From IMG/VR virus record IMGVR_UViG_2529293063_000008: 16,953 nucleotides of DNA. The stretch is one strand, 5' to 3'. Positions within the stretch are counted from its first letter, which is position 1. Each line of letters begins with the position of its first letter. Positions 2,900 through 16,761 of this stretch are shown here, in pieces. The stretch comes from a virus. Taxonomy: Duplodnaviria > Heunggongvirae > Uroviricota > Caudoviricetes. A model generated the notes under the pieces. It was not told the DNA's origin and did no database searches. It saw only the letters and a program-made list of their open reading frames with translations. Made by a program: the position numbers and the translations under genes.

Positions 2900-3118
2900 T
2901 CAATGATGTAAACTCTCAACAGCAATAACTTGTTGGCAATTCTGAGCTATCTCCCGCGACATACTAACAAGTCGTGAAATCTCGCCAAGATGCAAGCTGG
3001 CTTCTGGAGAAGCCAGAGCAACGCTAACCAGATCCAAAACGGCGTCGATGTCTTTTAGGTTTGATCCGAGTTCTTCAAGAGTTGATACAGGTGCTTCAGT
3101 CATTGAATCTAATACCAT
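2900..3118 (-). CDS. Hypothetical 72-aa protein, candidate SOS-regulated gene
   Basis: ATG at 3116-3118; promoter region 3119-3187 contains a LexA-box match and an operator-like 17-mer. Protein MVLDSMTEAPVSTLEELGSNLKDIDAVLDLV... is acidic and has no motif I recognise. Confidence 0.5.
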   Translation of the reverse strand: MVLDSMTEAPVSTLEELGSNLKDIDAVLDLVSVALASPEASLHLGEISRLVSMSREIAQNCQQVIAVESLHH

Positions 3119-3142: not shown

Positions 3143-3158
3143 CTGTATAAAATTACAG
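3143..3158. promoter_or_regulatory. LexA (SOS) box CTGT-N8-ACAG
   Basis: TACTGTATAAAATTACAGGG (3141-3160) matches the E. coli SOS-box consensus TACTGTATATATATACAGTA in both CTGT/ACAG arms and the AT-rich centre; 25 nt upstream of the 72-aa gene start. Confidence 0.6.
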
Positions 3159-3168
3159 GGTAAAACTC

Positions 3169-3185
3169 AAATTTTATAGCCAGCT
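3169..3185. promoter_or_regulatory. Distal copy of the repressor-operator-like 17-mer AAATTTTATAGCCAGCT
   Basis: Exact 17-nt identity with 7098-7114 in the cro/repressor intergenic region. Confidence 0.5.
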
Positions 3186-3187
3186 TT

Positions 3188-3342
3188 CAATGGATTAACT
3201 GGTTAAATATCTTTGTAGTCCGATACTTATGTTCCCTTCCTGCGCCTCGCCCAACCACTTCCAAAAGCCCATCACCACCATCAGAAAAGCTCTTTTCGCT
3301 CCGTTTTCGTATCATTTCAAAAAGCAATGCCTTTTTGTCCAT
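3188..3342 (-). CDS. Small hypothetical protein (51 aa), below the ORF-track size cutoff
   Basis: ATG at 3340-3342 with SD GGAGGGG 4-5 nt upstream; translation MDKKALLFEMIRKRSEKSFSDGGDGLLEVVGRGAGREHKYRTTKIFNQLIH; stop at 3188-3190. Confidence 0.3.
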
Positions 3343-3702: not shown

Positions 3703-4362
3703 TTACTTAACCCAATTAACTACACCGCCAGCGGCCACAACCGCTTTTTCACAGTCACGCTCATATCTCAAAGGTTGAAATACACCATCAATAAAATATT
3801 TATCTCCACCACATGCTGCAGGAAGTGAAACAGAAAACTGAATATGACCATCCGGAGTTACCGGAGAGTTGCCAGCCTCATACGCGACCCTTATCCAGTG
3901 CATAAGCATTTCTGTACTTACACATCCACAATCAACATCAATTTTGTCATGCTGCTGTTCCAGCCATTGCTCAAAAGTTAACTTGTAAGTTTGGCTTACA
4001 GGTTTGGCTTCCAGTTCTGCTATGTGATTTTTGGCTGATTCCAACTCAATCGACAATTTTTCCAACTGCTCTTTATGCTTTTTATATTCCTGATATGCGT
4101 GCCAAGACTGACCTTTGCGCACACTATCAGTAATATCAGTAATCTGTTCTGGTGTTAGCGTGGTCAGTGGCTGTGTTGGGAAAATAAGCACTTTCCCGGA
4201 ATCCCAATCAAAACCAGCGTGAATTGACTGAACCTCAACTGAAGGTGTTGAACCAATGCTGCCAGGCGAATGAACAACGATTGTTACATCCATATCGCGA
4301 CGATGGCTGTGGTTGTTGGACAAAATACGATTCACCAACTCAGAAAATTTGGAAAATTTCAT
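3703..4362 (-). CDS. Hypothetical phage early protein with central coiled-coil (possibly Ea22-like)
   Basis: 219 aa; ATG at 4362 with SD AAGGGGG; its start overlaps the upstream stop (ATGA). Coiled-coil-like KEQLEKLSIELESAKNHIAELEAK; family assignment is from memory only. Confidence 0.5.
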   Translation of the reverse strand: MKFSKFSELVNRILSNNHSHRRDMDVTIVVHSPGSIGSTPSVEVQSIHAGFDWDSGKVLIFPTQPLTTLTPEQITDITDSVRKGQSWHAYQEYKKHKEQLEKLSIELESAKNHIAELEAKPVSQTYKLTFEQWLEQQHDKIDVDCGCVSTEMLMHWIRVAYEAGNSPVTPDGHIQFSVSLPAACGGDKYFIDGVFQPLRYERDCEKAVVAAGGVVNWVK

Positions 4363-5874: not shown

Positions 5875-6177
5875 TTAAATGGCGTTATTTTCATTTTCTT
5901 GTGCGACCGTGGTCGCACCCTCTCTAATTTCCAGATAACGCTTAATCCAAAGATTTTCTATATGCTTATTACCTGGCTGATTTGATAAATACCAATCGGC
6001 AATTACAGACTGCTTATTACTATCGGGTCGTGTCCTGTAACCGCAAGTTGGACACCAGATGACATATTCATTTCTTACCCCCGAATACCTTAATTCTGGC
6101 TTCGACGGTTTCCTGAACATAACTTGTTTACAAAGGCAGAATGGCACTTCCTGCCCGATGGCGTTTGATGATTTCAC
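5875..6177 (-). CDS. Zinc-finger protein, possibly Lar-family restriction-alleviation protein
   Basis: Two Cys pairs (PFCLC ... CPTCGYRTRP) about 27 aa apart, followed by ADWYLSN, in the pattern I recall for Lar-like proteins. Start set at GTG 6177 (SD GGAG) so that both Cys pairs are included; overlaps the upstream gene by about 50 nt. Confidence 0.4.
   Translation of the reverse strand: MKSSNAIGQEVPFCLCKQVMFRKPSKPELRYSGVRNEYVIWCPTCGYRTRPDSNKQSVIADWYLSNQPGNKHIENLWIKRYLEIREGATTVAQENENNAI
5900..5919. repeat. Centromere-like palindrome, copy 2
   Basis: TGTGCGACCGTGGTCGCACC; core identical to 1606-1625 and 8345-8360. Lies inside coding sequence at the junction of two small genes. Confidence 0.5.
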
Positions 6178-6838
6178 TGCGCTTCTCCGCCGCATTTAAT
6201 AATGCGGTTCGATTTAAGCTCAGACATCGCGACTTAATTAAAAGCCAGCGTTCTTTATAATCTTGTCTCCAGCTATCAATAGATATATTCAGTAGAAAAC
6301 TCAGATGCCTGTCCTGTTCTCTCTCATCAACTGCCTCAGCACACGTAAGTTCTGATTTAACCTGCTGTGCCGCGTAATAAATCAATTTCCGCATGGCTTT
6401 TTTCGTGGAGGCCTTCATTTTTTTAAAGCCGCCCCCCGAATGAGCAACCAGAAAATCAAGCCATAACCACTGACAAACAATCACATCATTGTTGTAGTCA
6501 GGCTTGCATCCGTAGCAATAATAAAGCCAGGCTGATTCCTCGTTATTCAACTGACAAATAGCCCTGCGCCAGCTGGCGCTCTGAAAATCAATATCAGTGA
6601 GCAACATTGATGATTGTTTAAATGTTTTCCCCTGGTGGAATCTAACCGGCTCAGCGGGAACGGACACTTCGTATGAGTTATCATCCCCCACACTGATTGA
6701 CCGGACTGGTTTATTGTTAAACCGTCCTGATCTACCGAGACGCATCTGCTCAAGCTGGACCTCCAGAATGCCACGCTGGCGATAATGAACATCAGCCAAT
6801 GCCGTAGAGACGCAGCTGCGTATATACTCAAGCTCCAC
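6128..6838 (-). CDS. Hypothetical regulatory protein immediately downstream of cro (position of a cII- or Q-like early regulator)
   Basis: 236 aa; GTG start at 6838 overlapping the cro-like stop by 11 nt (ATG 6745 is an alternative); Cys-rich segment WLYYCYGCKPDYNNDVIVCQW. Function not assignable by eye. Confidence 0.5.
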   Translation of the reverse strand: MELEYIRSCVSTALADVHYRQRGILEVQLEQMRLGRSGRFNNKPVRSISVGDDNSYEVSVPAEPVRFHQGKTFKQSSMLLTDIDFQSASWRRAICQLNNEESAWLYYCYGCKPDYNNDVIVCQWLWLDFLVAHSGGGFKKMKASTKKAMRKLIYYAAQQVKSELTCAEAVDEREQDRHLSFLLNISIDSWRQDYKERWLLIKSRCLSLNRTALLNAAEKRSEIIKRHRAGSAILPL

Positions 6839-7049: not shown

Positions 7050-7080
7050 GTTGTTATTATAAACAATAAACAATAATTAA

Positions 7081-7134
7081 AGCCAGCTATAATAAATAAA
7101 TTTTATAGCCAGCTATAAGAAGATCATTTATGAT
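7081..7134. promoter_or_regulatory. Immunity-switch operator/promoter region with two operator copies
   Basis: AGCCAGCTATAA at 7081-7092 and 7109-7120; the second sits in TATAGC-CA-GCTATA with perfect 6-bp arms (7103-7116). TATGAT (7129-7134) lies 6 nt before the repressor ATG, suggesting a leaderless repressor mRNA. Confidence 0.5.
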
Positions 7135-7140
7135 TACAGT

Positions 7141-7737
7141 ATGAAAACACGAGGCGAACGACTGAAAGCACGCCGTTTAGAGATGAAGCTGACGTTGCGA
7201 GAAGTTGCTGAGGCTGTCGATATCTCTATAGCAGGCGTCCAAAACTTAGAACGTGGCGACGTAATGCCGTCACTGGAGATAGGTATTGCCCTGGCTAAGT
7301 GCTTACGCAAGCCAGTACATTGGGTGCTATATGGGACAGAATATGACCCTGATCGCATTCCTGTTATTGGCACAACTGAAAGTGGGCCTGATGAAGAGTG
7401 GAAGCCGGGACAGGTTCCAAATACTGAGCGATTCCTGCCATTCATCAGCCAGCGCAATACTGTGTATGCGTTAACTATCAGCAATCTTACGCAGGGAAAC
7501 TATCAGCCAGGCGATTTTCTCCTGGTCGATTCTGCGCTGGAACTGGTCCCCGGCGAGGATGTTCTGGTTCGTGATACTGCAGGAAATATCACTATCCAGC
7601 GCCTAGCCCGTTTTGATGATGAAAATTACTATCTGGATGGAACAAACTCACAACGCGCTATCTTCAGGAAAAGCGATCTTGAATTTGTTCACCAAATAGT
7701 CGGAACGATCAAATCATTCATGGTTGAGGGTAGATGA
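7141..7737 (+). CDS. CI-like prophage repressor (N-terminal HTH, C-terminal S24-like domain that appears to lack the catalytic lysine)
   Basis: 198 aa; HTH LTLREVAEAVDISIAGVQNLERG; C-terminal GDFLLVDS...GEDVLVR...ITIQRLAR resembles LexA/CI (GDLLAV...VTVKRL) but has Q where the catalytic K is expected. No Ala-Gly in the linker. Confidence 0.8.
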   Translation: MKTRGERLKARRLEMKLTLREVAEAVDISIAGVQNLERGDVMPSLEIGIALAKCLRKPVHWVLYGTEYDPDRIPVIGTTESGPDEEWKPGQVPNTERFLPFISQRNTVYALTISNLTQGNYQPGDFLLVDSALELVPGEDVLVRDTAGNITIQRLARFDDENYYLDGTNSQRAIFRKSDLEFVHQIVGTIKSFMVEGR

Positions 7738-7982: not shown

Positions 7983-10900
7983 ATGACATTAAACGATTTC
8001 TATGCGGATCGCTTTGGCAGCGATCCGTTCTCGCTAATTGAAGCAGCACGGGATGAACTAACCGAGCTGGCACAGATGGCTGGTATCAACTGGCCTGCCT
8101 GTTCCGACAACATCCAACTCAACCCTCGCGGGGGTGTTGAGCGTTACTCTTCATACAATAAAACATCTCCAGAAGCTCTCGAGAAGAGCCTCAAAGGACG
8201 CGTAGAAATTTACTCCCGGCTGGAACACAGCAAAGGGATTGATTACCCGTTCATTAACTTCGTCCATAAAGGCAGCGATGCTGGCTCATGGAGCGGTTTC
8301 TCCTTCCTGTTTTCTGAATATCGCCGTGAGCAACAACGGAATAATGCGACCGTGGTCGCACAACCGGAAGAAGAACGGGCAAGAATAGAACGTCAGGCCG
8401 AAGCACGTCGTCGCCGTGAAGAACAAAAACGAATTAATGACCTGAAAAACAACCAAATTGACCATGAACGTTTGCTGGGATGGCTGGCATTTCACAGCGC
8501 GTGGGAACATGCTCCTGCAGAAGACGGCTCATGGCCATATGCGATTAAAAAAGGTATTCGTGACGTTTTTAATTCGTGTGATGTGCGTCGCGTGACCAGT
8601 CACGACAGCGCAAAATGGAGCAGGGGGCCAACCACGTATATGGCTATCCCTCTGGCTCACCTGGACGGTCGTTACGATGGTCGTATTGTGGGTTGGCAGC
8701 GAATCGACAAACAAGGTGGAAAATACCAGACCAGCGCAGTAACCAGCGGCGATTTCGTCGGTGCCTGCTTTGTTATCGGTGAGCTGAAAGGGGCGCAAAA
8801 CATCGCTGTTACAGAAGGTTTTGCTACTGGTGCATCCATCTGGCTTGCCACGAAAAAAGATAAACGCTTTGACGCTGTGGTTGTCGCTGTATCCGCTAAC
8901 AACATGGTTCATGTTGTGGAACAACTGGTAAACATGTACCCGGCGGCAAAAATCACCTGCGCACTGGATAATGACCGGAAATCTGCCACAGAAGGAAAAG
9001 GGAATACCGGCCTGCGGACTGGCTATGAAATCTTATCGAAATTCAACGATGTCCGCTGCGTCTATCCAACTTTTGAAGACGATCCGCAAATGGAGTGCAG
9101 TGACTTCAACGACCTGCACAAACTACGTGGACTTCGTGAAACAGCACGTCAACTATTTGCAACAGCAAACCGCCTGAAAACTGGTACTGATTTGCTATCT
9201 CTGACGCTCAACCGCCTGAAGACAATTAAGCGGGATAACCGTCGTACTTTTGCCAAAGAGCTGCTGAGAGCGGTGGATATTGGCATGCTAACCTGTCCGG
9301 TTCCTAACAGTCCGTCAGATTTATTTAACATGTTCTGCATCGTTCTGCGTGAAATGGGACTGGAAAATATCTATCGCGCTACGGTAAAAGACCACATTGC
9401 CCGTCGCCTGAATAAAAAGTGCCGTATTGCCCAGGCTCCGCGCTCTTTCAGCGAACGCATAACTGATCCCAATAAACGCCCTCAACATATCACATATAAG
9501 CGTTTTGAAACTTCGGTAATGACCGATGATGTCCTGAAGTACGTGCAATCACTACAGGGGATAGTCATCGTCCGTGCTGGTATGGGTTCCGGCAAATCTA
9601 CTGGATTGTTACGACCGTTAATGCATAGCTCAGAACGTGGTATCTCTGTTGCTCACCGTGTCTCCCTTATTGGCGGCCTGTGGGAAATGATGACAGAAGG
9701 AAAAGGTGTAAAAGCCGATATCCTGCACTATCAGGATCCTGGCTATCAGGAAATAGCTCCATACGCCAGTAAACTGACCATCTGCATAAACTCGATTGTT
9801 AAAAACTGCTGGCAACCGTTGATGCGCCAGCACGACTATTTTGGCTTTGACGAGGCCACACAAGGGCTACGTGCCGTTCTTTCCGGTCGGGCTATGGAAA
9901 ACCCGGTGGCTGTATTCAATACGCTAATTGACGCGCTGGCCAGAACAGAACAACACCCAATCATGGTGGATGCTGATGCGAATGATCTGCTGGTTGACCT
10001 GGCTGAACTGGCTATGAAACGCCGTGAAGAACTAGGTTTACCGGCATGGCTGCAGATCCACGTAATTGAATTACCTGTTGATGTTCGCAACCGCGAAACA
10101 GGTGAGCCAATCCGGGTTTTTTATACAGAAAAAGATCGCATCATGACCGAGGTGGTGAAAGCTGTATCGGATGGCGAAAAAATCATGTTGGCCACCGACA
10201 GCTCCACCTTTGCAGAAGATGTGACAGCCACCCTGAGAATGCATTTTCCTGGTAAGAAATTTCTGTGTGTAAACCAGAAAAACAAACCAGAGCCAGAAGT
10301 TGAAGCATTTACCAATCAACCGAAAAAGATGGTCAAAAAATACGACGGCCTGATTTATAGCCCGTCTATTTCATCCGGCGTGTCGATTGAGCAAAAACAT
10401 TTTGACCGTCATTTCGGCATGTTCTGTGGTGAAGTTGTACCCAGCGACGCAGTGCAAATGCTACGCCGCGACCGTACAGCAAAAGAATTTATTATCGGCT
10501 TTGATAAAGCTCGTGCAAAACGTGAAACTGACCCGCAAAAAATAGAACGAGCATTCGCCCAGGCATTGCTTGCTACCGCAGGTATGAACGGTGAACTGAC
10601 GGATGTCGTTTTCGATGGCGACCGTATATCAATGGGGGTGGCCAATACCGACTTTACCAGGATGAAAATTAAAGCAGCCGCTATTGAAGCGACTGCGCGT
10701 AACGACTACGCCAGCAACATGATCTGCATCATGCACAGCGACGGTTATAAGGTATCGCCGCTGGCCACCGATTATGCTGCGAATGATATCGGTAAAGAGC
10801 TGCGTAAAGAAGCGCGGGATATTGTGTGGGAACAGACACTGGATCTGCATCTCAATACAGAAACTCCACAAGAATCAGAGCGTGAAGAACTGCTAAAAAA

Positions 10901-11978
10901 ACGCGCGCTGACGCTTGAAGAACAGGCAAAACTTGTCCGCTGGGATATTGAAAACGAACTGAAACTACCGGTTGAAGAAGGCACGCTGAAATTCTATTTC
11001 GATGGTGCTCGAGACAAAGTTCGCCGCTATGAAACAATGCTTTTAGATGAGGTAACAGCTCGTCGTTACGACCGGGAAGAAGCAGCCATCAATTTTACCT
11101 ACGCATACCGTCAGGCGGGACAGTGGCAATATTTTGTAGTGACCGCGATGACTCGCGAGCAGGCTGATGATGTCTTTAAAACTAAATTCCCTGGAATAAT
11201 CGATCACAAGGTAAAAGCTACTCCTACTGTTGAAGTCGGGGCGCGCGGTTTCTATGCGCTTAAATCAGCAACTCTCCGGCAGTACTTTATCGACTGCGGT
11301 ATCAACCCTGAGACTATGACCGGCGAGGCGACTCAGGAGCGTCTCAAATTTGCTCGAGATAACCTCATGACAGCCGAACGCCGTGACCTGTTGAATAACG
11401 TTCTGCACATTGGTGGTTTTATGACGCCAAAAGGGAAGCCTAAAGTGCCGGAAGCGTTGTTTAAAAACATTTGCGACTCTCTTGGCCTTAAAACAGGTAA
11501 ACGTCGCGGCAGAGACGGCGATAAGCGTCCAACCTTGCGTTTTGTTGAGCCTGAATCAGCGGCATTTATGCTGGATATTCTTGCTCAGCGTCAGAAAGAT
11601 GGCCTAACCCTGAAAACGCGTAAAGCCGAGAAGACCGCCATCGAAATGGATCGCGATTTGGATCTCAATATATATATGGATGATAAAACGCGATCCACAA
11701 ACGAGCAGGTTCAAAACGCCCCTCATTCAGTAATTTCTGAGGCTTTGGCTGTGTTGCCAGTGGTTGTACCTGAGTCCTGGGCGATGAGTGCGCTTTCCGG
11801 TGAGGAGCTGGCCACTATGTCATCATGGTCATCAGCCAGCATAGCTATGACGTTTGCATCTCTGTACCTCACAGAGTTCATGGATCACTTATCCAGCAAT
11901 GAACTGCGGCGGTTACGTGAATACATTACCGGGAATAGCCCATGCAGCTACGAAGAGCAGGGCGCTTTCTATGGGTAA
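7983..11978 (+). CDS. repA: Multidomain replication protein: primase (TOPRIM) fused to a P-loop helicase/NTPase, N15 RepA-like
   Basis: 1331 aa; TOPRIM-like IAVTEGFATGASIWLA ... ITCALDND; Walker A VRAGMGSGKST; size matches my memory of N15 RepA. Confidence 0.85.
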   Translation: MTLNDFYADRFGSDPFSLIEAARDELTELAQMAGINWPACSDNIQLNPRGGVERYSSYNKTSPEALEKSLKGRVEIYSRLEHSKGIDYPFINFVHKGSDAGSWSGFSFLFSEYRREQQRNNATVVAQPEEERARIERQAEARRRREEQKRINDLKNNQIDHERLLGWLAFHSAWEHAPAEDGSWPYAIKKGIRDVFNSCDVRRVTSHDSAKWSRGPTTYMAIPLAHLDGRYDGRIVGWQRIDKQGGKYQTSAVTSGDFVGACFVIGELKGAQNIAVTEGFATGASIWLATKKDKRFDAVVVAVSANNMVHVVEQLVNMYPAAKITCALDNDRKSATEGKGNTGLRTGYEILSKFNDVRCVYPTFEDDPQMECSDFNDLHKLRGLRETARQLFATANRLKTGTDLLSLTLNRLKTIKRDNRRTFAKELLRAVDIGMLTCPVPNSPSDLFNMFCIVLREMGLENIYRATVKDHIARRLNKKCRIAQAPRSFSERITDPNKRPQHITYKRFETSVMTDDVLKYVQSLQGIVIVRAGMGSGKSTGLLRPLMHSSERGISVAHRVSLIGGLWEMMTEGKGVKADILHYQDPGYQEIAPYASKLTICINSIVKNCWQPLMRQHDYFGFDEATQGLRAVLSGRAMENPVAVFNTLIDALARTEQHPIMVDADANDLLVDLAELAMKRREELGLPAWLQIHVIELPVDVRNRETGEPIRVFYTEKDRIMTEVVKAVSDGEKIMLATDSSTFAEDVTATLRMHFPGKKFLCVNQKNKPEPEVEAFTNQPKKMVKKYDGLIYSPSISSGVSIEQKHFDRHFGMFCGEVVPSDAVQMLRRDRTAKEFIIGFDKARAKRETDPQKIERAFAQALLATAGMNGELTDVVFDGDRISMGVANTDFTRMKIKAAAIEATARNDYASNMICIMHSDGYKVSPLATDYAANDIGKELRKEARDIVWEQTLDLHLNTETPQESEREELLKKRALTLEEQAKLVRWDIENELKLPVEEGTLKFYFDGARDKVRRYETMLLDEVTARRYDREEAAINFTYAYRQAGQWQYFVVTAMTREQADDVFKTKFPGIIDHKVKATPTVEVGARGFYALKSATLRQYFIDCGINPETMTGEATQERLKFARDNLMTAERRDLLNNVLHIGGFMTPKGKPKVPEALFKNICDSLGLKTGKRRGRDGDKRPTLRFVEPESAAFMLDILAQRQKDGLTLKTRKAEKTAIEMDRDLDLNIYMDDKTRSTNEQVQNAPHSVISEALAVLPVVVPESWAMSALSGEELATMSSWSSASIAMTFASLYLTEFMDHLSSNELRRLREYITGNSPCSYEEQGAFYG
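8345..8360. repeat. Centromere-like palindrome, copy 3 (inside repA coding sequence)
   Basis: TGCGACCGTGGTCGCA exact; encodes ...NATVVAQ... within repA. Confidence 0.5.
8592..8603. repeat. Palindrome GTGACCAGTCAC (copy 2, inside repA)
   Basis: Flanked as CGTGACCAGTCACG; same family as 3353-3364 and 13196-13215. Confidence 0.35.
11648..11696. other. Candidate internal replication origin within the 3' part of repA
   Basis: 8-bp inverted repeat GGATCGCG / CGCGATCC (11648-11655, 11689-11696) flanks the AT-rich TCAATATATATATGGATGATAAAA and includes three GATC sites. I recall the N15 ori mapping inside the 3' part of repA. Confidence 0.3.
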
Positions 11979-12909: not shown

Positions 12910-13134
12910 ATGAACTGTAACAAAAATGAAGAAACTCGCCTGGTTTGGACGGTAGTAATCGGAGATAAAAAGGGCGGTGAAGAGCCTCATTTTGATTATT
13001 CTGTGGCTTTGCAGGCTCTCATCCTTGAAGCACAGGGATACCAACAAGAGATGCAGAAGAACCCTCAACTGGAACCTCGACCAATTGGCCTATTCTGCGA
13101 GCGAGTATCAGCGGCGGAACTCCCTGATATCTGA
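12910..13134 (+). CDS. Hypothetical protein (74 aa)
   Basis: ATG 12910 with strong SD AAGGAG 6 nt upstream (longest ORF starts GTG 12895). Confidence 0.5.
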   Translation: MNCNKNEETRLVWTVVIGDKKGGEEPHFDYSVALQALILEAQGYQQEMQKNPQLEPRPIGLFCERVSAAELPDI

Positions 13135-13195
13135 TGCCCTCCAACAGCTGATCAGGTTCTGATCAGTTAGTAAAGCAAACTATAAAAACACCTGT

Positions 13196-13215
13196 CCCCG
13201 TGACTGGTCACGGGG
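13196..13215. repeat. Perfect hairpin-forming palindrome CCCCGTGA-CTGG-TCACGGGG (GTGACYRGTCAC family, copy 3)
   Basis: 8-bp GC-rich arms with a 4-nt loop; lies 20 bp upstream of a candidate promoter for the antisense-RNA/antirepressor operon. Confidence 0.45.
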
Positions 13216-13235
13216 TAAAATGTCTTTTCAAATTA

Positions 13236-13265
13236 TTGACGTGTGCGTCGTTTTGACGGTAAAGT
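13236..13265 (+). promoter_or_regulatory. Candidate sigma70 promoter of the antirepressor (immI-like) operon
   Basis: TTGACG (13236-13241), 18-nt spacer, TAAAGT (13260-13265). Confidence 0.3.
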
Positions 13266-13378
13266 TACTTCGCTGCGGTAAATCCCGTAGCCGGGACTCT
13301 CAACCCCGAAATCCGAACGACGCACAACACGCGCCAGCGTGTTTTTTTGTGTGTATGAGCCTGCGCATATCCGAATTA

Positions 13379-13460
13379 TGGTGGCTCAGGTGGGGCAGCC
13401 GAAAGGCTGGCCGGTGTCGTTTGGGCCGGTGTTGAGAACCCCGCTTGGGCTACCACCCCA
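13379..13460 (+). ncRNA. Candidate c4-type antisense RNA (P1 c4 / N15 CA RNA analogue); boundaries approximate
   Basis: About 80-nt GC-rich segment closed by GGTGG (13380-13384) / CCACC (13453-13457) with internal hairpins. Loop GGTGTTGAGAACCCC (13428-13442) is complementary to ACTCTCAACCCC (13296-13307) and ATTCTCAACTC (13466-13476), which flank it upstream of the icd-like start. Confidence 0.4.
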
Positions 13461-13514
13461 TAGAGATTCTCAACTCTGGTGGTAGCACTGTTTTACCAAA
13501 CAAGAGTGCATACC

Positions 13515-13679
13515 ATGTTCAAATTCAAATTTGCGGCAGTCGTTCGCACAGACAAAAAGTCACACATCCATCATCTTTCCACCATCGCGTCATCTGAACG
13601 GGAAGCTCGTCGCCAGTTCGCCAGCCGGTTTGTCCTGGTATTGTCTGCCCGTATTCCGGTGCGCGAGGTGGCTGCATGA
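13515..13679 (+). CDS. Icd-like small protein (first gene of the antirepressor operon)
   Basis: ATG 13515 (MFKFKFAAVVRTDKKSHIHHLSTIASSEREARRQFASRFVLVLSARIPVREVAA); the longest ORF begins at GTG 13479. Stop overlaps the next start (ATGA). Resemblance to Icd-like proteins is from memory. Confidence 0.5.
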   Translation: MFKFKFAAVVRTDKKSHIHHLSTIASSEREARRQFASRFVLVLSARIPVREVAA

Positions 13680-13909
13680 ATCAGGTAAAAATGAACACTG
13701 TTGGCCTGCTGGAATCGTTGGATGAACGTCTGGCTCAGGTCTATGCGCTTGTGTCATCCGCCCATCGTACAGTCTCCAGCTGTGAGGCGTCGATTTATCT
13801 CTCAGAAGCCGGGAAGCTCCTTCAAATTGCGTGTGAGTTGACACACAAAGCACAGGGGTATTCAGCATCTCTCTCGTCGCAATTGCAGCACAATAAGGAG
13901 GCCAAATGA
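13676..13909 (+). CDS. Hypothetical protein (77 aa), translationally coupled middle gene of the antirepressor operon
   Basis: SD GAGGTGG 6 nt upstream; ATGA overlaps at both ends. Confidence 0.55.
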   Translation: MNQVKMNTVGLLESLDERLAQVYALVSSAHRTVSSCEASIYLSEAGKLLQIACELTHKAQGYSASLSSQLQHNKEAK

Positions 13910-14688
13910 GCGCGTTAGCTGTATTTTCGTTTCAGGAAGAGCATCAGGTTCGTGTAGTGATGATTAACGGCGATCCGTGGTTTGTAGCGGCTGATGTTTG
14001 TAATGCCATCGGGATTATCAATCATCGTGATGCTGTTGGTAAGTTGGATGAAGACGAAAAGGGGGTCGGTTCAACAGACACCCTTGGAGGTAAACAGGGA
14101 GTGACAATTATTAACGAATCCGGCCTCTATACCCTAATCCTCCGCTGCCGTGACGCGGTGAAGCAAGGCACAACAGCTTGGCGGTTTCGCAAATGGGTAA
14201 CGAACGAAGTCTTGCCCTCTATTCGCAAAAATGGAGAGTACGTTTACGTCGAGCCAGAGCCAATGCGAGCAGCAGAGCCGTTGAACTGGAGGCAGAAAGA
14301 GTATCTGCGAGGGCTGATTAACGATATTGCACAAAGTTTTCAATACCGAAATGCCTGGATTAGCGGTGTATGGTTGGCTTTGCGTCGGGCGTGTCGTAAT
14401 CCATCCCCGAACCCCATAACTGTTGATGATTTGCCAGCAATTACGGCAGAACTGCGCCGGATTTTGACGGCTGCTGAGTCGGCATTGGGGAACATGCGCA
14501 CGTATGAACGAGAGTTGTTGCGTGATGTTGTTCGTGGTGGTAGGCGGAGTATGTCGTGTGGTGATTTGCCCATCACCGATATCAACTCTGATCTGGAAAA
14601 GGCGTTACCCGCGCATTTTGAACTGGCAGTTCAAAAACTTGAGCAGTTATCCGCGCAGCTAAAGCCAGCAGAAATCACCAATAAATAG
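13906..14688 (+). CDS. Phage antirepressor with N-terminal Bro-N/AntA-type domain
   Basis: 260 aa; SD AAGGAGG; N-terminal FSFQEEHQVRVVMINGDPWFVAADVCNAIGIINHRDAVGKLDEDEKG...IINESGLYTLILRCR...KWVTNEVLPSIRKNGEY matches the antirepressor signature as I remember it. Confidence 0.8.
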   Translation: MSALAVFSFQEEHQVRVVMINGDPWFVAADVCNAIGIINHRDAVGKLDEDEKGVGSTDTLGGKQGVTIINESGLYTLILRCRDAVKQGTTAWRFRKWVTNEVLPSIRKNGEYVYVEPEPMRAAEPLNWRQKEYLRGLINDIAQSFQYRNAWISGVWLALRRACRNPSPNPITVDDLPAITAELRRILTAAESALGNMRTYERELLRDVVRGGRRSMSCGDLPITDINSDLEKALPAHFELAVQKLEQLSAQLKPAEITNK

Positions 14689-14823
14689 GGTTGACCAGCC
14701 CGAATTTATGCCCTTCTTAGAGAAGGGAAGCCTCGCAGTCGGGGCGGTGATGTCTGTGGTTGCAGCCGCGTTTCCTCCGTTACTTCTGCCCTTTGCAGGG
14801 GGCAGGCGAGGTAGGTCACACAA

Positions 14824-14847
14824 CAAGGCACCGTTAATTCGGTGCCT
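14824..14847. terminator. Hairpin between convergent ant and telN genes (likely terminator)
   Basis: AAGGCACCG-TTAATT-CGGTGCCTT, 9-bp stem, immediately beyond the telN stop (14860). Confidence 0.45.
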
Positions 14848-14859
14848 TTACTGTATGCT

Positions 14860-16761
14860 TTAACCGAAATATGTCAGCCATGCTAACTGCATTGCTGACA
14901 TGGGGCTGTTTGCACTGCCGGACCACGCATAATTCTGGCCATTATAATGAAACTCAACAACGTATGAGCCATCACCAATATTTCTCACCGGCTTAAATAC
15001 CGGCTTAGATACAGGCGAAGAAGGTGCAGGCGGTTGCTGTTCTTCTACGCTCTCTTCCTCTTCCTCTTCCTCTTCCTCTATCTCAATTTCGTCGTCATCC
15101 AGATCGTCATCCTCTGACAATTCATCCGCCAGTTCAGGTATTGCTTCCAGTTCTTCTTCGTCAGGCATAACGATTTCTGGAGTATCTATTTTCAGTTGCC
15201 ATTGTCCGTTTTCGCCAACAAATTGCCCCAGAGCATCAGCAGCAAATTCCAGGTATCGACTAATCATTGTTGGGCTAAATTTGAACGCTCTTAGAGTGCT
15301 GTTCGTGATTTTTATAGAGGGGTCCTGCTCTACCAGCTGCTTAACTGTGTTATGCAGACGAACCCCGGCATCTCCTCTGGCGAATCCAGGCATTTCGTCA
15401 TCAAGCTGCTGCAATGCTTCCAGCCTGGTATTTTCGTTTCCAGTATTTGGCCTCCATGTCTTTGAGAAGTTGGCCAGCTTGAATTGCTTATAGTGTAATT
15501 GAGTGTTTTCATCGTCATGGCCTAAAATTTCCATAAAGAAAACATCTTCATCTACGTTTTTCCAACGAGGATCTACGCGGAAAAACATTTCATACGCAAT
15601 ACGGGCATAAATAGCACGACTATCTTTATAAACACGGCGGTCATCTTTGAAAAATGATTTAACCCACGGGTTAAAAGCCTTTGCTAATATGGCATTAATA
15701 CGTCCGTTTTCAGAGCGTGTGTCGTTATCTCCATAACCTTTAACGACATCATCAAAATCAGATGCTGCTGGGCATGAGCGAAGTACATTTATTAAATAAA
15801 CAAATGTTTTTGCTTCGCATAATGTATATATTTTTCTGGTTATATCATCAGAAGTTCTTTTTTTAGCTTGGCCTAAAAAATCAACGGTATACTTACCAGA
15901 AACAGTAAATGTACCTTGATACATAATCTCAATCATTCGTCTTCCTGACAATGCAGCAAGTGCAAATGCCAAAGGAGCCATACCTGAACGAGTGTTTAGA
16001 TTATTTAATGTAGCAGGGCTATTTATAATATCGTAAATAGCTTGCATATATTTAGGGTAATCAATGACCACCACGTTACGTTTCTTATTGTGCAGAACGT
16101 CCGCCCATCGTTGCTGGATAGATGCACGTTCGGCAGGGCTTAGTTGAAGATGATAGAGAATCTCATGGTTAACTTTTAGCTGATTCAACTCCTCAAGTAA
16201 GGCAGATCCTTGCTGTAGTAATTTATATAAATAATCGCGCTTATCTTTCCAGTTATCGCTAGTTAAATCAGAAATGGCGAATTGCCACTCTTTATATTTA
16301 TTTGATAATTTCAATAACTTATTATGACTTTTGTTATCGCCAATTCTGATATTAGATAAATCTTCTGATAGAGGGAGAATTAATTTTAATTTTGCCTGTA
16401 AAGCTGACATTCTCTGGCGAATATCGGCAGCAGGTAGAGAAAGCCATGACAATAGCTCCTCATTATATAAAGGATACTTTTCAGATAGGCGATGTATATT
16501 TTTTTCAAAGCTATGATGAAGTTTATCATCAAACCGTTTTCTGGCCCTGCTCATATAGGCATTGAATGTGTTGGCTGTAATTCTTTTTTCTAATCCTTTC
16601 CCCCTAAACTTTCGCTTGTCATTAAATAATGCATTTTTAAATTTTAATGCAACAGCCTTTATTTTTTTTGTTTTCTCCCCTTGAGGACGGTCAGAGTTAT
16701 CTATTGACTCAACATCGCTAACAAGTGAGTTTATTAATTCACCGATTTTTACTTTGCTCAT
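14860..16761 (-). CDS. telN: Protelomerase (telomere resolvase), TelN-like
   Basis: 633 aa; N-terminus MSKVKIGELIN..., length and an acidic Glu/Asp-rich stretch before the C-terminus match my memory of N15 TelN. SD AGGAGAGG. The gene abuts the terminal half-palindrome. Confidence 0.8.
   Translation of the reverse strand: MSKVKIGELINSLVSDVESIDNSDRPQGEKTKKIKAVALKFKNALFNDKRKFRGKGLEKRITANTFNAYMSRARKRFDDKLHHSFEKNIHRLSEKYPLYNEELLSWLSLPAADIRQRMSALQAKLKLILPLSEDLSNIRIGDNKSHNKLLKLSNKYKEWQFAISDLTSDNWKDKRDYLYKLLQQGSALLEELNQLKVNHEILYHLQLSPAERASIQQRWADVLHNKKRNVVVIDYPKYMQAIYDIINSPATLNNLNTRSGMAPLAFALAALSGRRMIEIMYQGTFTVSGKYTVDFLGQAKKRTSDDITRKIYTLCEAKTFVYLINVLRSCPAASDFDDVVKGYGDNDTRSENGRINAILAKAFNPWVKSFFKDDRRVYKDSRAIYARIAYEMFFRVDPRWKNVDEDVFFMEILGHDDENTQLHYKQFKLANFSKTWRPNTGNENTRLEALQQLDDEMPGFARGDAGVRLHNTVKQLVEQDPSIKITNSTLRAFKFSPTMISRYLEFAADALGQFVGENGQWQLKIDTPEIVMPDEEELEAIPELADELSEDDDLDDDEIEIEEEEEEEEESVEEQQPPAPSSPVSKPVFKPVRNIGDGSYVVEFHYNGQNYAWSGSANSPMSAMQLAWLTYFG

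Follow-up and report, generated by a model that had tools for sequence, protein, structure and literature searches.

The three genes at positions 13,515 to 14,688 of the window, i.e. of the whole 16,953-nucleotide stretch of IMGVR_UViG_2529293063_000008 that was analysed, most probably represent the protein-coding portion of an immA operon of the N15 type (probability about 0.8), in which the small protein AntA is the likely inactivator of the CB repressor, AntB is accessory, a CA RNA would gate expression and overlapping reading frames would couple the genes. The main value of this assignment is a correction, since it points to a small 77-aa protein as the most likely functional antirepressor of N15-like phage-plasmids. 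An earlier note on this DNA had described an antirepressor operon, and gene-for-gene homology with N15 genes 32, 31 and 30 (87%, 59% and 74% amino acid identity for Icd, AntA and AntB, respectively) bears out an anti-immunity operon. The following features were assigned to it:

13236-13265, + strand: candidate operon promoter (Pa-like), TTGACG, 18-nt spacer, TAAAGT (promoter scan)
13272-13347, + strand: leader RNA of the isrK / P4 seqA type with two hairpins (Rfam isrK)
13298-13304 (TCTCAAC) and 13312-13323 (TCCGAACGACGC), + strand: upstream CA RNA target boxes in the leader (complementarity and covariation)
13374-13460, + strand: C4-family antisense RNA, homologue of N15 CA RNA (Rfam C4)
13414-13425 (hairpin loop) and 13431-13438 (GTTGAGAA), + strand: pairing segments of the CA RNA
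13467-13474 (TTCTCAAC) and 13496-13501 (CCAAAC), + strand: downstream CA RNA target boxes (complementarity and covariation)
13515-13679, + strand: icd, first cistron, putative 54-aa Icd-like inhibitor of host cell division (NF033153)
13676-13909, + strand: antA, 77-aa protein, predicted two-helix hairpin (homology to N15 and phiKO2 AntA)
13906-14688, + strand: antB, 260-aa protein with Bro-N at residues 14-104 and a C-terminal half without assigned domain (PF02498)

Judged by its genes, the window is an N15-like linear (telomere) phage-plasmid; RepA, CB repressor, Cro, Q and a TelK-type protelomerase were all detected, and the nearest phage records were Ravinvirus YDC107_1 and N15. The features in the surroundings of the operon are:

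6128-6838, - strand: Q
7141-7737, + strand: CB-type prophage repressor, HTH_3 and S24-like C-terminal part (Pfam)
7983-11978: RepA
14825-14848, between the convergent antB and telN: 9-bp GC-rich hairpin, AAGGCACCG / CGGTGCCTT (read from the sequence)
14860-16761, - strand: telN, TelK-type protelomerase domains (domain search)

The CB repressor showed 77.8% identity to N15 cB (gene 38) and 99.5-100% identity to the repressors of PhiR46_1 and YDC107_1. The genes icd-antA-antB lie between the repA-side genes and the convergent telN, an order that is identical in N15 and phiKO2. The hairpin at 14825-14848 was missed by the T-run terminator scan; it is a candidate bidirectional terminator, and in the phiKO2 record a terminator marked 'putative bidirectional' occupies the corresponding place. 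Two copies of the operon appeared in YDC107_1, but were dismissed as biology: the record is duplicated in inverted orientation (repA-immA-telN / telN-immA-repA) and its telN is fragmented, as if the assembly had read through a hairpin telomere.

The candidate promoter was the sole + strand promoter-like site found by the scan within 13000-14900. Both hexamers are kept in all seven sequences spanning this region; MStein was left out of the comparison, as its sequence begins downstream of the promoter. A search for CB operators near the promoter yielded none at three or fewer mismatches. The predicted transcription start lies at about 13272, where the Rfam isrK model also begins. The leader matched this model (RF01394) over its full length with 54.9 bits (gathering score 50), and the terminator scan showed a Rho-independent terminator with a stem at 13326-13343, followed by a T-run. 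The same leader hairpin is annotated as a putative terminator in the N15 record and, according to the Rfam isrK structure, the leader terminator forms by default. A single transcript starting at about 13272 would thus comprise the isrK/seqA-like leader with its terminator, the CA RNA, icd, antA and antB.

The CA RNA matched the Rfam C4 model (RF01695), also over its full length, with 71.8 bits (gathering score 45, E = 1.3e-12). Among the relatives its stems are kept and its loops are variable. Across seven genomes, a three-way covariation was observed between the CA RNA loops, the upstream boxes and the downstream boxes, and the downstream boxes co-vary with the CA loops in N15, phiKO2, PhiR46_1, NAR688, MStein and 48ST307. 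For the upstream target, the cognate RNA-target duplex was the most stable one in all seven genomes, and for the downstream target in five of the seven, with one further tie. For the window, N15, PhiR46_1 and NAR688, these duplex stabilities predict that each RNA would repress its own leader only, apart from some cross-talk between the window and N15 at the downstream site. The downstream box at 13467-13474 forms eight perfect base pairs with the CA loops and the box at 13496-13501 only six; the latter adjoins the icd Shine-Dalgarno sequence AAGAG (13502-13506). The second CA segment, 13431-13438, is common to the window and N15, whereas the CA hairpin loop of the window differs from that of N15 and matches the loop of Enterobacter phage MStein. 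PhiR46_1, with a CB repressor 99.5% identical to that of the window, has entirely different RNA boxes.

These observations suggest that the CA RNA acts in trans and in two ways, via its two exposed segments. By analogy with P4 and N15, pairing with the boxes that immediately precede the leader terminator would favour premature termination of transcription; by analogy with P1, pairing with the boxes abutting the icd ribosome-binding site would block the translation of icd. The locus is a clean natural case of RNA-based immunity specificity, the RNA loops varying in step with targets at two distinct places. Covariation of the RNA boxes could also help to predict cross-induction between telomere phages, which are now known as common in Klebsiella and E. 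coli.

The first gene had been called icd-like, and a profile search agreed with this: its product matched NF033153 with E = 1.1e-18 and 67 bits (cutoff 25), as did P1 Icd. Identity to N15 Icd is 94% across 54 aa, the value of 87% being that obtained with the longer annotated N15 gp32. The ATG at 13515, giving 54 aa, is supported as the start of icd and is preferred over the GTG at 13479, because the match to the NF033153 profile sets in at the second residue of the 54-aa protein, RefSeq and phiKO2 annotate icd as 165 nt and one-base indels among the relatives disrupt the frame ahead of the ATG. The GTG, which some annotations use as the start of a 66-aa protein, was rejected on account of these frame-breaking indels and of the overlap of the upstream part with the conserved RNA; the 96-aa form of N15 gene 32 was rejected for the same two reasons.

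The three genes lie on one strand, and neighbours overlap by the four bases ATGA: at 13676-13679 the stop codon TGA of icd shares bases with the antA ATG, and at 13906-13909 antA runs into antB, both positions being those read in the earlier note; the mechanically generated ORF list includes both 13676-13909 (77 aa) and 13906-14688 (260 aa). Overlaps of four bases are common in phage genomes and one more is present within the window, at 4359-4362, so that the ATGA overlaps alone are unremarkable; it is their conservation that sets them apart. The first junction reads ATGA in seven of eight aligned relatives and GTGA in the remaining one, while the second reads ATGA in all seven relatives with the third gene. 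The same 4-nt overlaps were found in N15 and phiKO2.

The coupling had been called obligatory, which the sequence does not bear out: both downstream genes have a Shine-Dalgarno sequence of their own. That of antA is GAGGUGG (-7.4 kcal/mol), and its ribosome-binding site has a predicted opening cost of 8-11 kcal/mol (63rd-89th percentile) in seven of seven genomes. That of antB is the strong AAGGAGG (-11.9 kcal/mol), and opening its ribosome-binding site in the window has a predicted cost of 3.7 kcal/mol (10th percentile), which places this region among the most accessible of the transcript. Because its Shine-Dalgarno sequence is strong and the site is predicted open, antB could initiate independently. 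As regards independent signals for the antirepressor gene, a Shine-Dalgarno sequence was present before both antA and antB, but the scan revealed no promoter-like site on the + strand inside the operon. It had also been claimed that a block at the first start codon silences the antirepressor. Dependence on the first gene is predicted only, and silencing via the first cistron is plausible by analogy with P1, in which icd is annotated as 'apparently required for expression of ant', and with Gifsy-1, in which a stop codon in orf45 lowered the activation of anrP from 114-fold to 8-fold (PMC4825925). Following these relatives, the ATGA overlaps would relay the translation state of icd to antA, whose ribosome-binding site is predicted to be structured; a relay to antB is less certain.

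It might also be argued that the overlaps reflect ordinary compact packing, that each cistron initiates itself and that control is wholly transcriptional, via RNA-promoted termination in the leader. This is the alternative that survives best, although we regard it as unlikely. The separate Shine-Dalgarno sequences of antA and antB, the open antB site, the four-base and other overlaps elsewhere in the window and the presence of a leader terminator with target boxes upstream would all agree with it. However, the downstream boxes at the icd ribosome-binding site co-vary with the RNA, and it is therefore hard to explain how the translation of icd could be irrelevant. Furthermore, the antA ribosome-binding site is consistently predicted to be structured, and coupling or polarity has been documented at the homologous loci of P1 and Gifsy-1.

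For the 77-aa middle gene no counterpart had been named in the earlier note. It proved to be a homologue of N15 gene 31, i.e. of AntA, and the record of its phiKO2 orthologue, Gp28, carries the note 'similar to antirepressor ... N15 AntA'. Profile searches connected AntA of the window with phrog_6301 (E = 1.4e-36) and with phrog_10889, named 'anti-repressor' (9.9e-18); N15 AntA gave 1.6e-30 and 2.4e-15 with the same two profiles, and PY54 AntA, a member of phrog_10889, gave 3.3e-14 and 3.5e-39. PY54 AntA was linked to AntA of the window by pairwise BLASTP as well as by profiles, although tblastn of PY54 AntA against the window gave no match. PY54 AntA is nearly identical in sequence to the AntA of P840, whose gene (87 aa) has been shown experimentally to abolish lysogenisation, and antA alone, expressed from an arabinose promoter, raised the copy number of an N15 vector about tenfold. 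AntA is thus most likely the inactivator of the CB repressor, its presumed target, to which it would bind by analogy with its relatives. The roles given here to AntA and AntB derive from the phiKO2 annotation, from secondary citations and from homologues.

The AntA family appears to be small. No Pfam or NCBIfam family was found for the 77-aa protein in profile searches, a word-indexed homologue search returned solely relatives at >84% identity and an exhaustive HMMER search gave only eight cluster representatives; the family is therefore narrow and a deep alignment out of reach. An AF2 model from single-sequence input showed helices at residues 2-32 and 36-76 (pLDDT 79). Comparison of this model with the PDB by Foldseek yielded generic two-helix hairpins only, none at E ≤ 0.001, and PDB sequence searches with AntA and with AntB gave no matches.

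The third gene had been described as a Bro-N antirepressor. The domain was confirmed by a profile search (PF02498, E = 1.6e-20, 74 bits, gathering score 25.6), whereas the role was not: the phiKO2 record assigns it to the small AntA and describes the Bro-N protein Gp27 as 'auxiliary anti-repressor ... AntB'. Reviews describe immA as an icd/antA/antB operon and leave the function of AntB unsettled. The gene antB is reduced to 54 aa in PhiR46_1 and in the E. coli plasmid p2 and is missing in 48ST307; of 17 matching E. coli plasmids, roughly 12 have a truncated copy. Many relatives with a truncated or lost antB keep icd-antA intact, and PY54 and P840 likewise carry antA without antB. This pattern suggests that AntB is an accessory or auxiliary protein, dispensable in relatives.

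The same pattern bears on the idea that AntA and AntB act solely as a stoichiometric complex, as Ant1 and Ant2 do with C1 in P1, with the overlaps setting the ratio. The P1 annotation does describe a complex of Ant1, Ant2 and C1, the phiKO2 record calls N15 AntB auxiliary to anti-repression, and the ATGA junction is kept together with the strong antB Shine-Dalgarno sequence wherever antB occurs. However, the natural loss or truncation of antB with antA kept, the presence of antA without antB in PY54 and P840 and the use of antA alone as a working tool render such an obligate complex quite improbable. Least probable, and only faintly so, is that the CI-like repressor is inactivated by the Bro-N protein, with the 77-aa ORF as a passenger of unrelated or unknown kind: the label 'anti-repressor Ant' is widely given to Bro-N proteins (PHROGs 130, 245, 2899 and others), RefSeq uses it for N15 gp30, and the 77-aa gene is a 'hypothetical protein' in RefSeq and lacks a Pfam or NCBIfam family, but against this stand the roles assigned in the phiKO2 record, the activity of small AntA homologues on their own, the many relatives with a 54-aa or missing antB and intact icd-antA, and a second AntA-family member behind a LexA box in the same element. 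The 'hypothetical' label of the one gene and the conspicuous Bro-N domain of the other mislead annotation pipelines, and readers who go by domain names, as to which of the two is the switch.

The second AntA-type gene and the site preceding it are located as follows:

2900-3118, - strand: 72-aa AntA paralogue (phrog_6301)
3143-3158: LexA-box-like site before the paralogue, the sole match to the LexA-box pattern in the window

The 72-aa ORF matched phrog_6301 with E = 3.2e-36 and phrog_10889 with E = 1.4e-06, and shares the motif S-P-E-A-S-L-x-L-x-E with the AntA proteins. A direct BLASTP comparison of AntA with the paralogue was not significant, and the link is visible by the PHROG profile and the motif only. 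A CB-operator-like site also precedes the gene. In N15, a homologue of the 72-aa protein is encoded at 39604-39807, with CTGTGTTTATATACAG upstream. The 72-aa protein is probably the counterpart of the SOS-controlled AntC of N15, and would then be a second antirepressor that is differently wired.

A wider proposal, to which we give somewhat less than even odds, is that one helical-hairpin antirepressor fold serves two inputs, AntA being RNA-gated, icd-coupled and acting on infection, and the paralogue, with its LexA box and CB-operator-like site, acting on SOS, and that each of the two CA RNA boxes reassorts without regard to the other or to the CB type. If this were true, the RNA and not the repressor would decide which co-resident or superinfecting N15-like plasmids switch each other on, and a heteroimmunity of the P1/P7 style would extend across the telomere phages of E. 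coli, Klebsiella and Enterobacter.

Several known systems resemble the operon in part. In the immunity system of satellite P4, the loop of the small processed CI RNA pairs with the upstream seqA and the downstream seqC, as in the layout of the window, and Icd of the window shares 50% identity with the product of the ORF that follows the P4 RNA most closely. P4, however, uses the RNA device to shut off its replication operon, whereas the operon of the window is an antirepressor operon. P4 seqA has been called a structural homologue of IsrK (PMC4825925), and the window leader matches the isrK family of the Gifsy-1 isrK-orf45-anrP locus (Hershko-Shalev et al. 2016, PMC4825925), terminator included. 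In Gifsy-1, a processed RNA, STnc1160, lies downstream of isrK, where the window has its C4-family RNA, and a small first ORF needs to be translated for expression of the downstream antirepressor. The Gifsy-1 locus has two cistrons, orf45 and anrP, and not three; its short IsrK activates translation in trans and its output is AntQ toxicity, whereas Q of the window lies elsewhere.

The small proteins N15 AntC, 186 Tum and Gifsy GfoA/GftA, which are LexA-controlled and bind a non-cleavable repressor (Lemire et al. 2011, PMC3121763), are the type to which the gene at 2900-3118, in the PHROG of AntA, would belong. AntA differs from them in having no LexA box and in being gated, as proposed above, by an RNA and an upstream cistron.

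In the immI operon of P1 and P7 (c4, icd, ant1/ant2), a C4-family RNA is processed from the operon's own leader, as is predicted for the window, and target boxes lie on either side of the RNA, those downstream of it being located where ribosomes bind for icd. The a2 and b2 sites of P1 are annotated just 5′ of icd, in a layout matching that of the downstream boxes, the icd/ant1 junction of P1 is ATGA, as is icd/antA here, and the RNA boxes set the heteroimmunity between P1 and P7. The likeness to P1, with which the earlier note had compared the operon, does not extend to the Ant proteins themselves. Ant1 and Ant2 are KilAC/ANT proteins, Ant1 matching PF03374 only and lacking Bro-N, and BLASTP of P1 Ant1 against AntA and AntB of the window gave no significant similarity. 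Between icd and ant, where the window has the 77-aa gene, P1 lacks a small gene of the AntA type; the P1 promoter contains Oc4, an operator for C1, whereas nothing resembling a CB operator was found near the promoter of the window, and no terminator is annotated in the P1 leader.

The closest system is immA of N15 (cA/CA RNA, icd, antA, antB; Ravin, Svarchevsky and Deho 1999, as cited in later work), whose architecture is without any difference from that of the window. In N15 immA and in the phiKO2 copy (genes 29/28/27), as in the window, the operon comes after repA and small ORFs and faces telN convergently, and a leader with terminator and a C4-family RNA precede three genes that are linked by 4-nt overlaps. 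N15 differs from the window in its RNA specificity boxes, and AntA and CB are only 59% and 78% identical, respectively. The system is already known; the window adds one member to it and leaves the mechanism unchanged.

The three genes at 13515-14688 constitute, judged by gene order and homology, an operon that is already known, the N15-type anti-immunity operon (immA), which is real and had been located correctly. Their products and orthologues were as follows:

13515-13679 (+), first gene, icd, 54 aa: N15 gp32 (87% aa identity when aligned with gp32 in its longer annotated form, 94% over 54 aa); phiKO2 Gp29, explicitly annotated as icd in the GenBank record
13676-13909 (+), middle gene, 77 aa: N15 gp31 (59% aa identity); phiKO2 Gp28 (76 aa), with the GenBank note that it is similar to the N15 AntA antirepressor
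13906-14688 (+), third gene, Bro-N, 260 aa: N15 gp30 (74% aa identity); phiKO2 Gp27 (260 aa), explicitly annotated as auxiliary anti-repressor AntB in the GenBank record

In N15 the same block of three genes, likewise overlapping by 4 nt, lies upstream of telN, the two being convergent. According to two papers on telomere phages of Yersinia, immA comprises icd, antA and antB in one operon, the function of AntB not being settled. On the basis of these papers and the phiKO2 annotation, the middle gene can be identified as antA and the Bro-N gene as antB. The earlier note had recognised the operon, icd and the Bro-N domain, and in this it was right; it had placed the antirepressor role on the wrong gene, since the phiKO2 record and the activity of AntA homologues point to the small protein, for which it could name no counterpart and which has one in gp31 and Gp28.

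The window also codes for a RepA of 1331 aa, a CI/CB-type repressor (HTH_3 and an S24-like part), a P22-type Cro, a Q antiterminator and a TelK-type protelomerase. The operon region showed 95.7% nucleotide identity to Ravinvirus phage YDC107_1, its first third 79% to N15, and in E. coli it was found on plasmids only (17 of 5426 genomes). Gene content, these matches and the plasmid-only occurrence identify the window, at the sequence level, as an N15-like linear phage-plasmid. The YDC107_1 record (CP025712) contains two inverted copies of the repA-immA-telN block, and in the second copy telN is in fragments; this resembles an assembly that read through the hairpin telomere more than a true duplication.

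AntA proteins of this kind have been shown to act by themselves. N15 antA alone, under an arabinose promoter, raised N15-based linear vectors from ~5 to ~50 copies per cell; PY54 and P840 have an antA of 87 aa and no antB, and P840 antA was by itself enough to abolish lysogenisation by PY54. PY54 and P840 AntA belong to phrog_10889 ("anti-repressor") with a cross-match to phrog_6301, and AntA of N15 and the window showed the reverse pattern, phrog_6301 with a cross-match to phrog_10889. These reciprocal matches indicate that all four are members of one superfamily; pairwise BLASTP of the window and PY54 proteins gave 36% identity over 44 residues. The AntA family is narrow, with 8 cluster representatives at E <= 0.001 among 1.84 billion proteins. 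Pfam and NCBIfam searches returned no model for AntA and a PDB search no relative, and its RefSeq label is hypothetical protein. A single-sequence AF2 model predicted a two-helix hairpin (helices 2-32 and 36-76, pLDDT 79), the fold matches of which were generic hairpins.

AntB is expendable in nature. PhiR46_1 and E. coli plasmid p2 retained only a 54-aa Bro-N stub of it (loci L006 1731-1895 and L012 1503-1667), and query coverage of 53-57%, the same pattern as this truncation, was seen in roughly 12 of the 17 E. coli plasmids. In Klebsiella phage 48ST307, which had no antB, a hairpin separates antA from telN (L009 1501-1800). All of these relatives kept icd, antA and their overlap.

Upstream of icd, the following elements were found:

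13236-13265 (+), promoter-like site TTGACG-N18-TAAAGT, the sole one on the + strand in 13000-14900
13272-13347, isrK element, full-length Rfam match, 54.9 bits (gathering score 50)
13326-13343, stem of a Rho-independent terminator at the end of the isrK element, followed by a T-run
13374-13460, C4 antisense RNA, full-length Rfam match, 71.8 bits (gathering score 45)

The isrK model starts exactly at the predicted transcription start, and a promoter scan found no promoter-like site on the + strand inside the coding part of the operon. The N15 record annotates the equivalent hairpin as a putative terminator. The C4-family RNA (CA RNA in N15) has two exposed segments, a hairpin loop (13414-13425) and GTTGAGAA (13431-13438). 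The loop can pair with 13312-13323, directly 5' of the terminator, over 12 bp, 3 of which are G-U, and is also complementary to CCAAAC (13496-13501), adjoining the icd Shine-Dalgarno AAGAG (13502-13506). The second segment is perfectly complementary to TTCTCAAC (13467-13474) and also complementary to TCTCAAC (13298-13304), which sits in the loop of the leader's second hairpin.

A perfect 9+9 palindrome, CCCCGTGAC-TG-GTCACGGGG (13196-13215), lies just 5' of the operon promoter and was nearly invariant across all aligned relatives; it could be a terminator of upstream small ORFs or a protein-binding site. A 71-aa ORF (13220-13435, +; phrog_34583, 'hypothetical' in YDC107_1) overlaps the promoter, the isrK-like leader and the C4 RNA, and RefSeq has a partial 'ash family protein' pseudogene in the matching region of plasmid pG749_3 (L013 940-1062). 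Both look like protein calls on RNA genes.

In an alignment of eight genomes the RNA stems were invariant, and both segments and both target sets changed together. Three-way covariation of CA RNA segment, upstream target and downstream target was observed across 7 phage-plasmids in this alignment.

Second RNA segment and its target box, upstream and downstream, in relatives
phiKO2 and 48ST307: RNA ATTCCTAC; target GTAGGAAC
PhiR46_1: RNA ATTGCGAA; target TTCGCAAC / TTCGCAAT
NAR688 and MStein: RNA ATTCTCAC; target GTGAGAAC

The hairpin loop of PhiR46_1 and NAR688 has a downstream partner (AAACGGAG) that overlies the GGAG Shine-Dalgarno itself. An all-against-all RNAduplex matrix gave the cognate pair as the most stable in 7/7 genomes for the upstream target and in 5/7, plus one tie, for the downstream target. 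The two RNA boxes reassort independently, the 7 genomes having 7 different combinations; one box of the window recurs in N15, the other in MStein. PhiR46_1 has a prophage repressor (CB; 7141-7737, +, in the window) 99.5% identical to that of the window, yet both RNA boxes differ, which argues that RNA specificity is uncoupled from repressor type.

The ATGA overlaps claimed for both gene junctions were confirmed at exactly 13676-13679 and 13906-13909, and the ORFs of 77 and 260 aa were both in the mechanical ORF list. The icd start is best placed at ATG 13515, giving 54 aa, since residue 2 of this product is where the NCBIfam Icd-like profile starts to match, icd is annotated as 165 nt in RefSeq and phiKO2, and one-base indels disrupt the frame 5' of this ATG in aligned relatives. 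Four-base overlaps are frequent in phage genomes and another is found in the window at 4359-4362, so that they are unremarkable per se. In the eight-relative alignment (mean column identity 82%), the icd/antA junction was ATGA in 7/8 relatives and GTGA in one, and the antA/antB junction was ATGA in 7/7 relatives with a third gene.

Initiation sites were compared by the energy that opening of positions -15 to +5 around the start is predicted to require, ranked within the transcript in seven genomes. The antA site (Shine-Dalgarno GAGGUGG, -7.4 kcal/mol vs anti-SD) cost 8.1 kcal/mol in the window and lay in the 63rd-89th percentile in all seven, a predicted structure that fits reliance on ribosomes coming from icd. 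The antB site (AAGGAGG, -11.9 kcal/mol) cost 3.7 kcal/mol (10th percentile; 10th-83rd among relatives), and owing to this low cost antB may well be initiated on its own. The icd and ant1 genes of P1 are joined by an ATGA overlap, and the annotation describes icd as apparently needed for ant expression; in Gifsy-1, a stop codon in orf45 cut IsrK-dependent anrP activation from 114-fold to 8-fold (Hershko-Shalev et al. 2016, PMC4825925). By analogy with these experimental precedents in homologous systems, silencing of the operon by a block at the first start is a reasonable idea, which gains support from where the downstream boxes lie and from their covariation. Control through the first cistron, as the note proposed, is plausible, while "obligatory" coupling was an overstatement, especially for the Bro-N gene with its site predicted to be open.

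A second candidate antirepressor gene was found elsewhere. The pattern CTGT-N8-ACAG occurs once in the window, as a LexA-box-like site (CTGTATAAAATTACAG, 3143-3158) within the promoter of a 72-aa ORF (2900-3118, -). The product matched phrog_6301, the N15 AntA family, at 3.2e-36 and shares the motif S-P-E-A-S-L-x-L-x-E with AntA proteins; common membership of this PHROG suggests that it is an AntA paralogue. Its N15 homologue (57% identical, 39604-39807) is unannotated and also preceded by such a box, CTGTGTTTATATACAG. A LexA-controlled AntC of N15 has been described, and both ORFs presumably represent this SOS-controlled AntC. Two small, paralogous antirepressors thus seem to be present in the element, one RNA-gated and one SOS-gated. 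The cro-like and CB-like genes diverge from an interval that holds two near-palindromic 16-bp sites, candidate CB/Cro operators:

7077-7092, TTAAAGCCAGCTATAA
7103-7118, TTATAGCCAGCTATAA

A similar site, TTATAGCCAGCTTTCA (3174-3189), with 2 mismatches to these, overlaps the promoter of the 72-aa ORF; a search with this type of site found none within 3 mismatches near the immA promoter.

From the observed sequence features, homologies and covariation we infer a mechanism in which termination, coupling and AntA-CB binding are proposed steps. The promoter at 13236-13265 would yield mostly a short terminated leader, and read-through transcripts would be processed to CA RNA. When present, as in a lysogen, CA RNA would pair with the nascent leader boxes beside the terminator and favour termination; in N15 and P4, pairing of the small RNA with the leader reportedly promotes termination. 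On escaped transcripts its partners would be the boxes at the ribosome-binding site of icd, so that translation of icd and, via the overlap, of antA would be blocked. If the infected cell lacks cognate CA RNA, Icd, AntA and AntB would all be made; AntA would bind CB and shift the outcome towards lytic growth or a high copy number, and Icd would delay division.

Among known systems, the Gifsy-1 isrK locus has the isrK leader family and the principle of small-ORF coupling, predicted here, in common with the window, and P4 immunity the design of upstream and downstream targets. Window Icd was 50% identical to the first ORF 3' of the P4 CI RNA (NC_001609 8177-8332), and on this account the P4 leader and first ORF appear to be homologous to the N15-type leader and icd. 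This P4 ORF lies inside the 'cI/ash' gene product of old records. P1 immI has the same annotated layout as the window (a1/b1 sites, c4 RNA, a2/b2 sites, icd, ant1), its a2/b2 sites being annotated as repressing icd ant translation, and the uncoupling of RNA specificity from repressor type resembles the published P1/P7 heteroimmunity. P1/P7 immI is thus alike at the level of RNA and icd but differs in cargo: P1 Ant1 has a KilAC/ANT domain (PF03374) without Bro-N, BLAST showed no similarity of it to window AntA or AntB, and the two Icd proteins have only profile NF033153 in common. With N15/phiKO2 immA, all defining features at the sequence level were found in the window operon, which is a member of this group.
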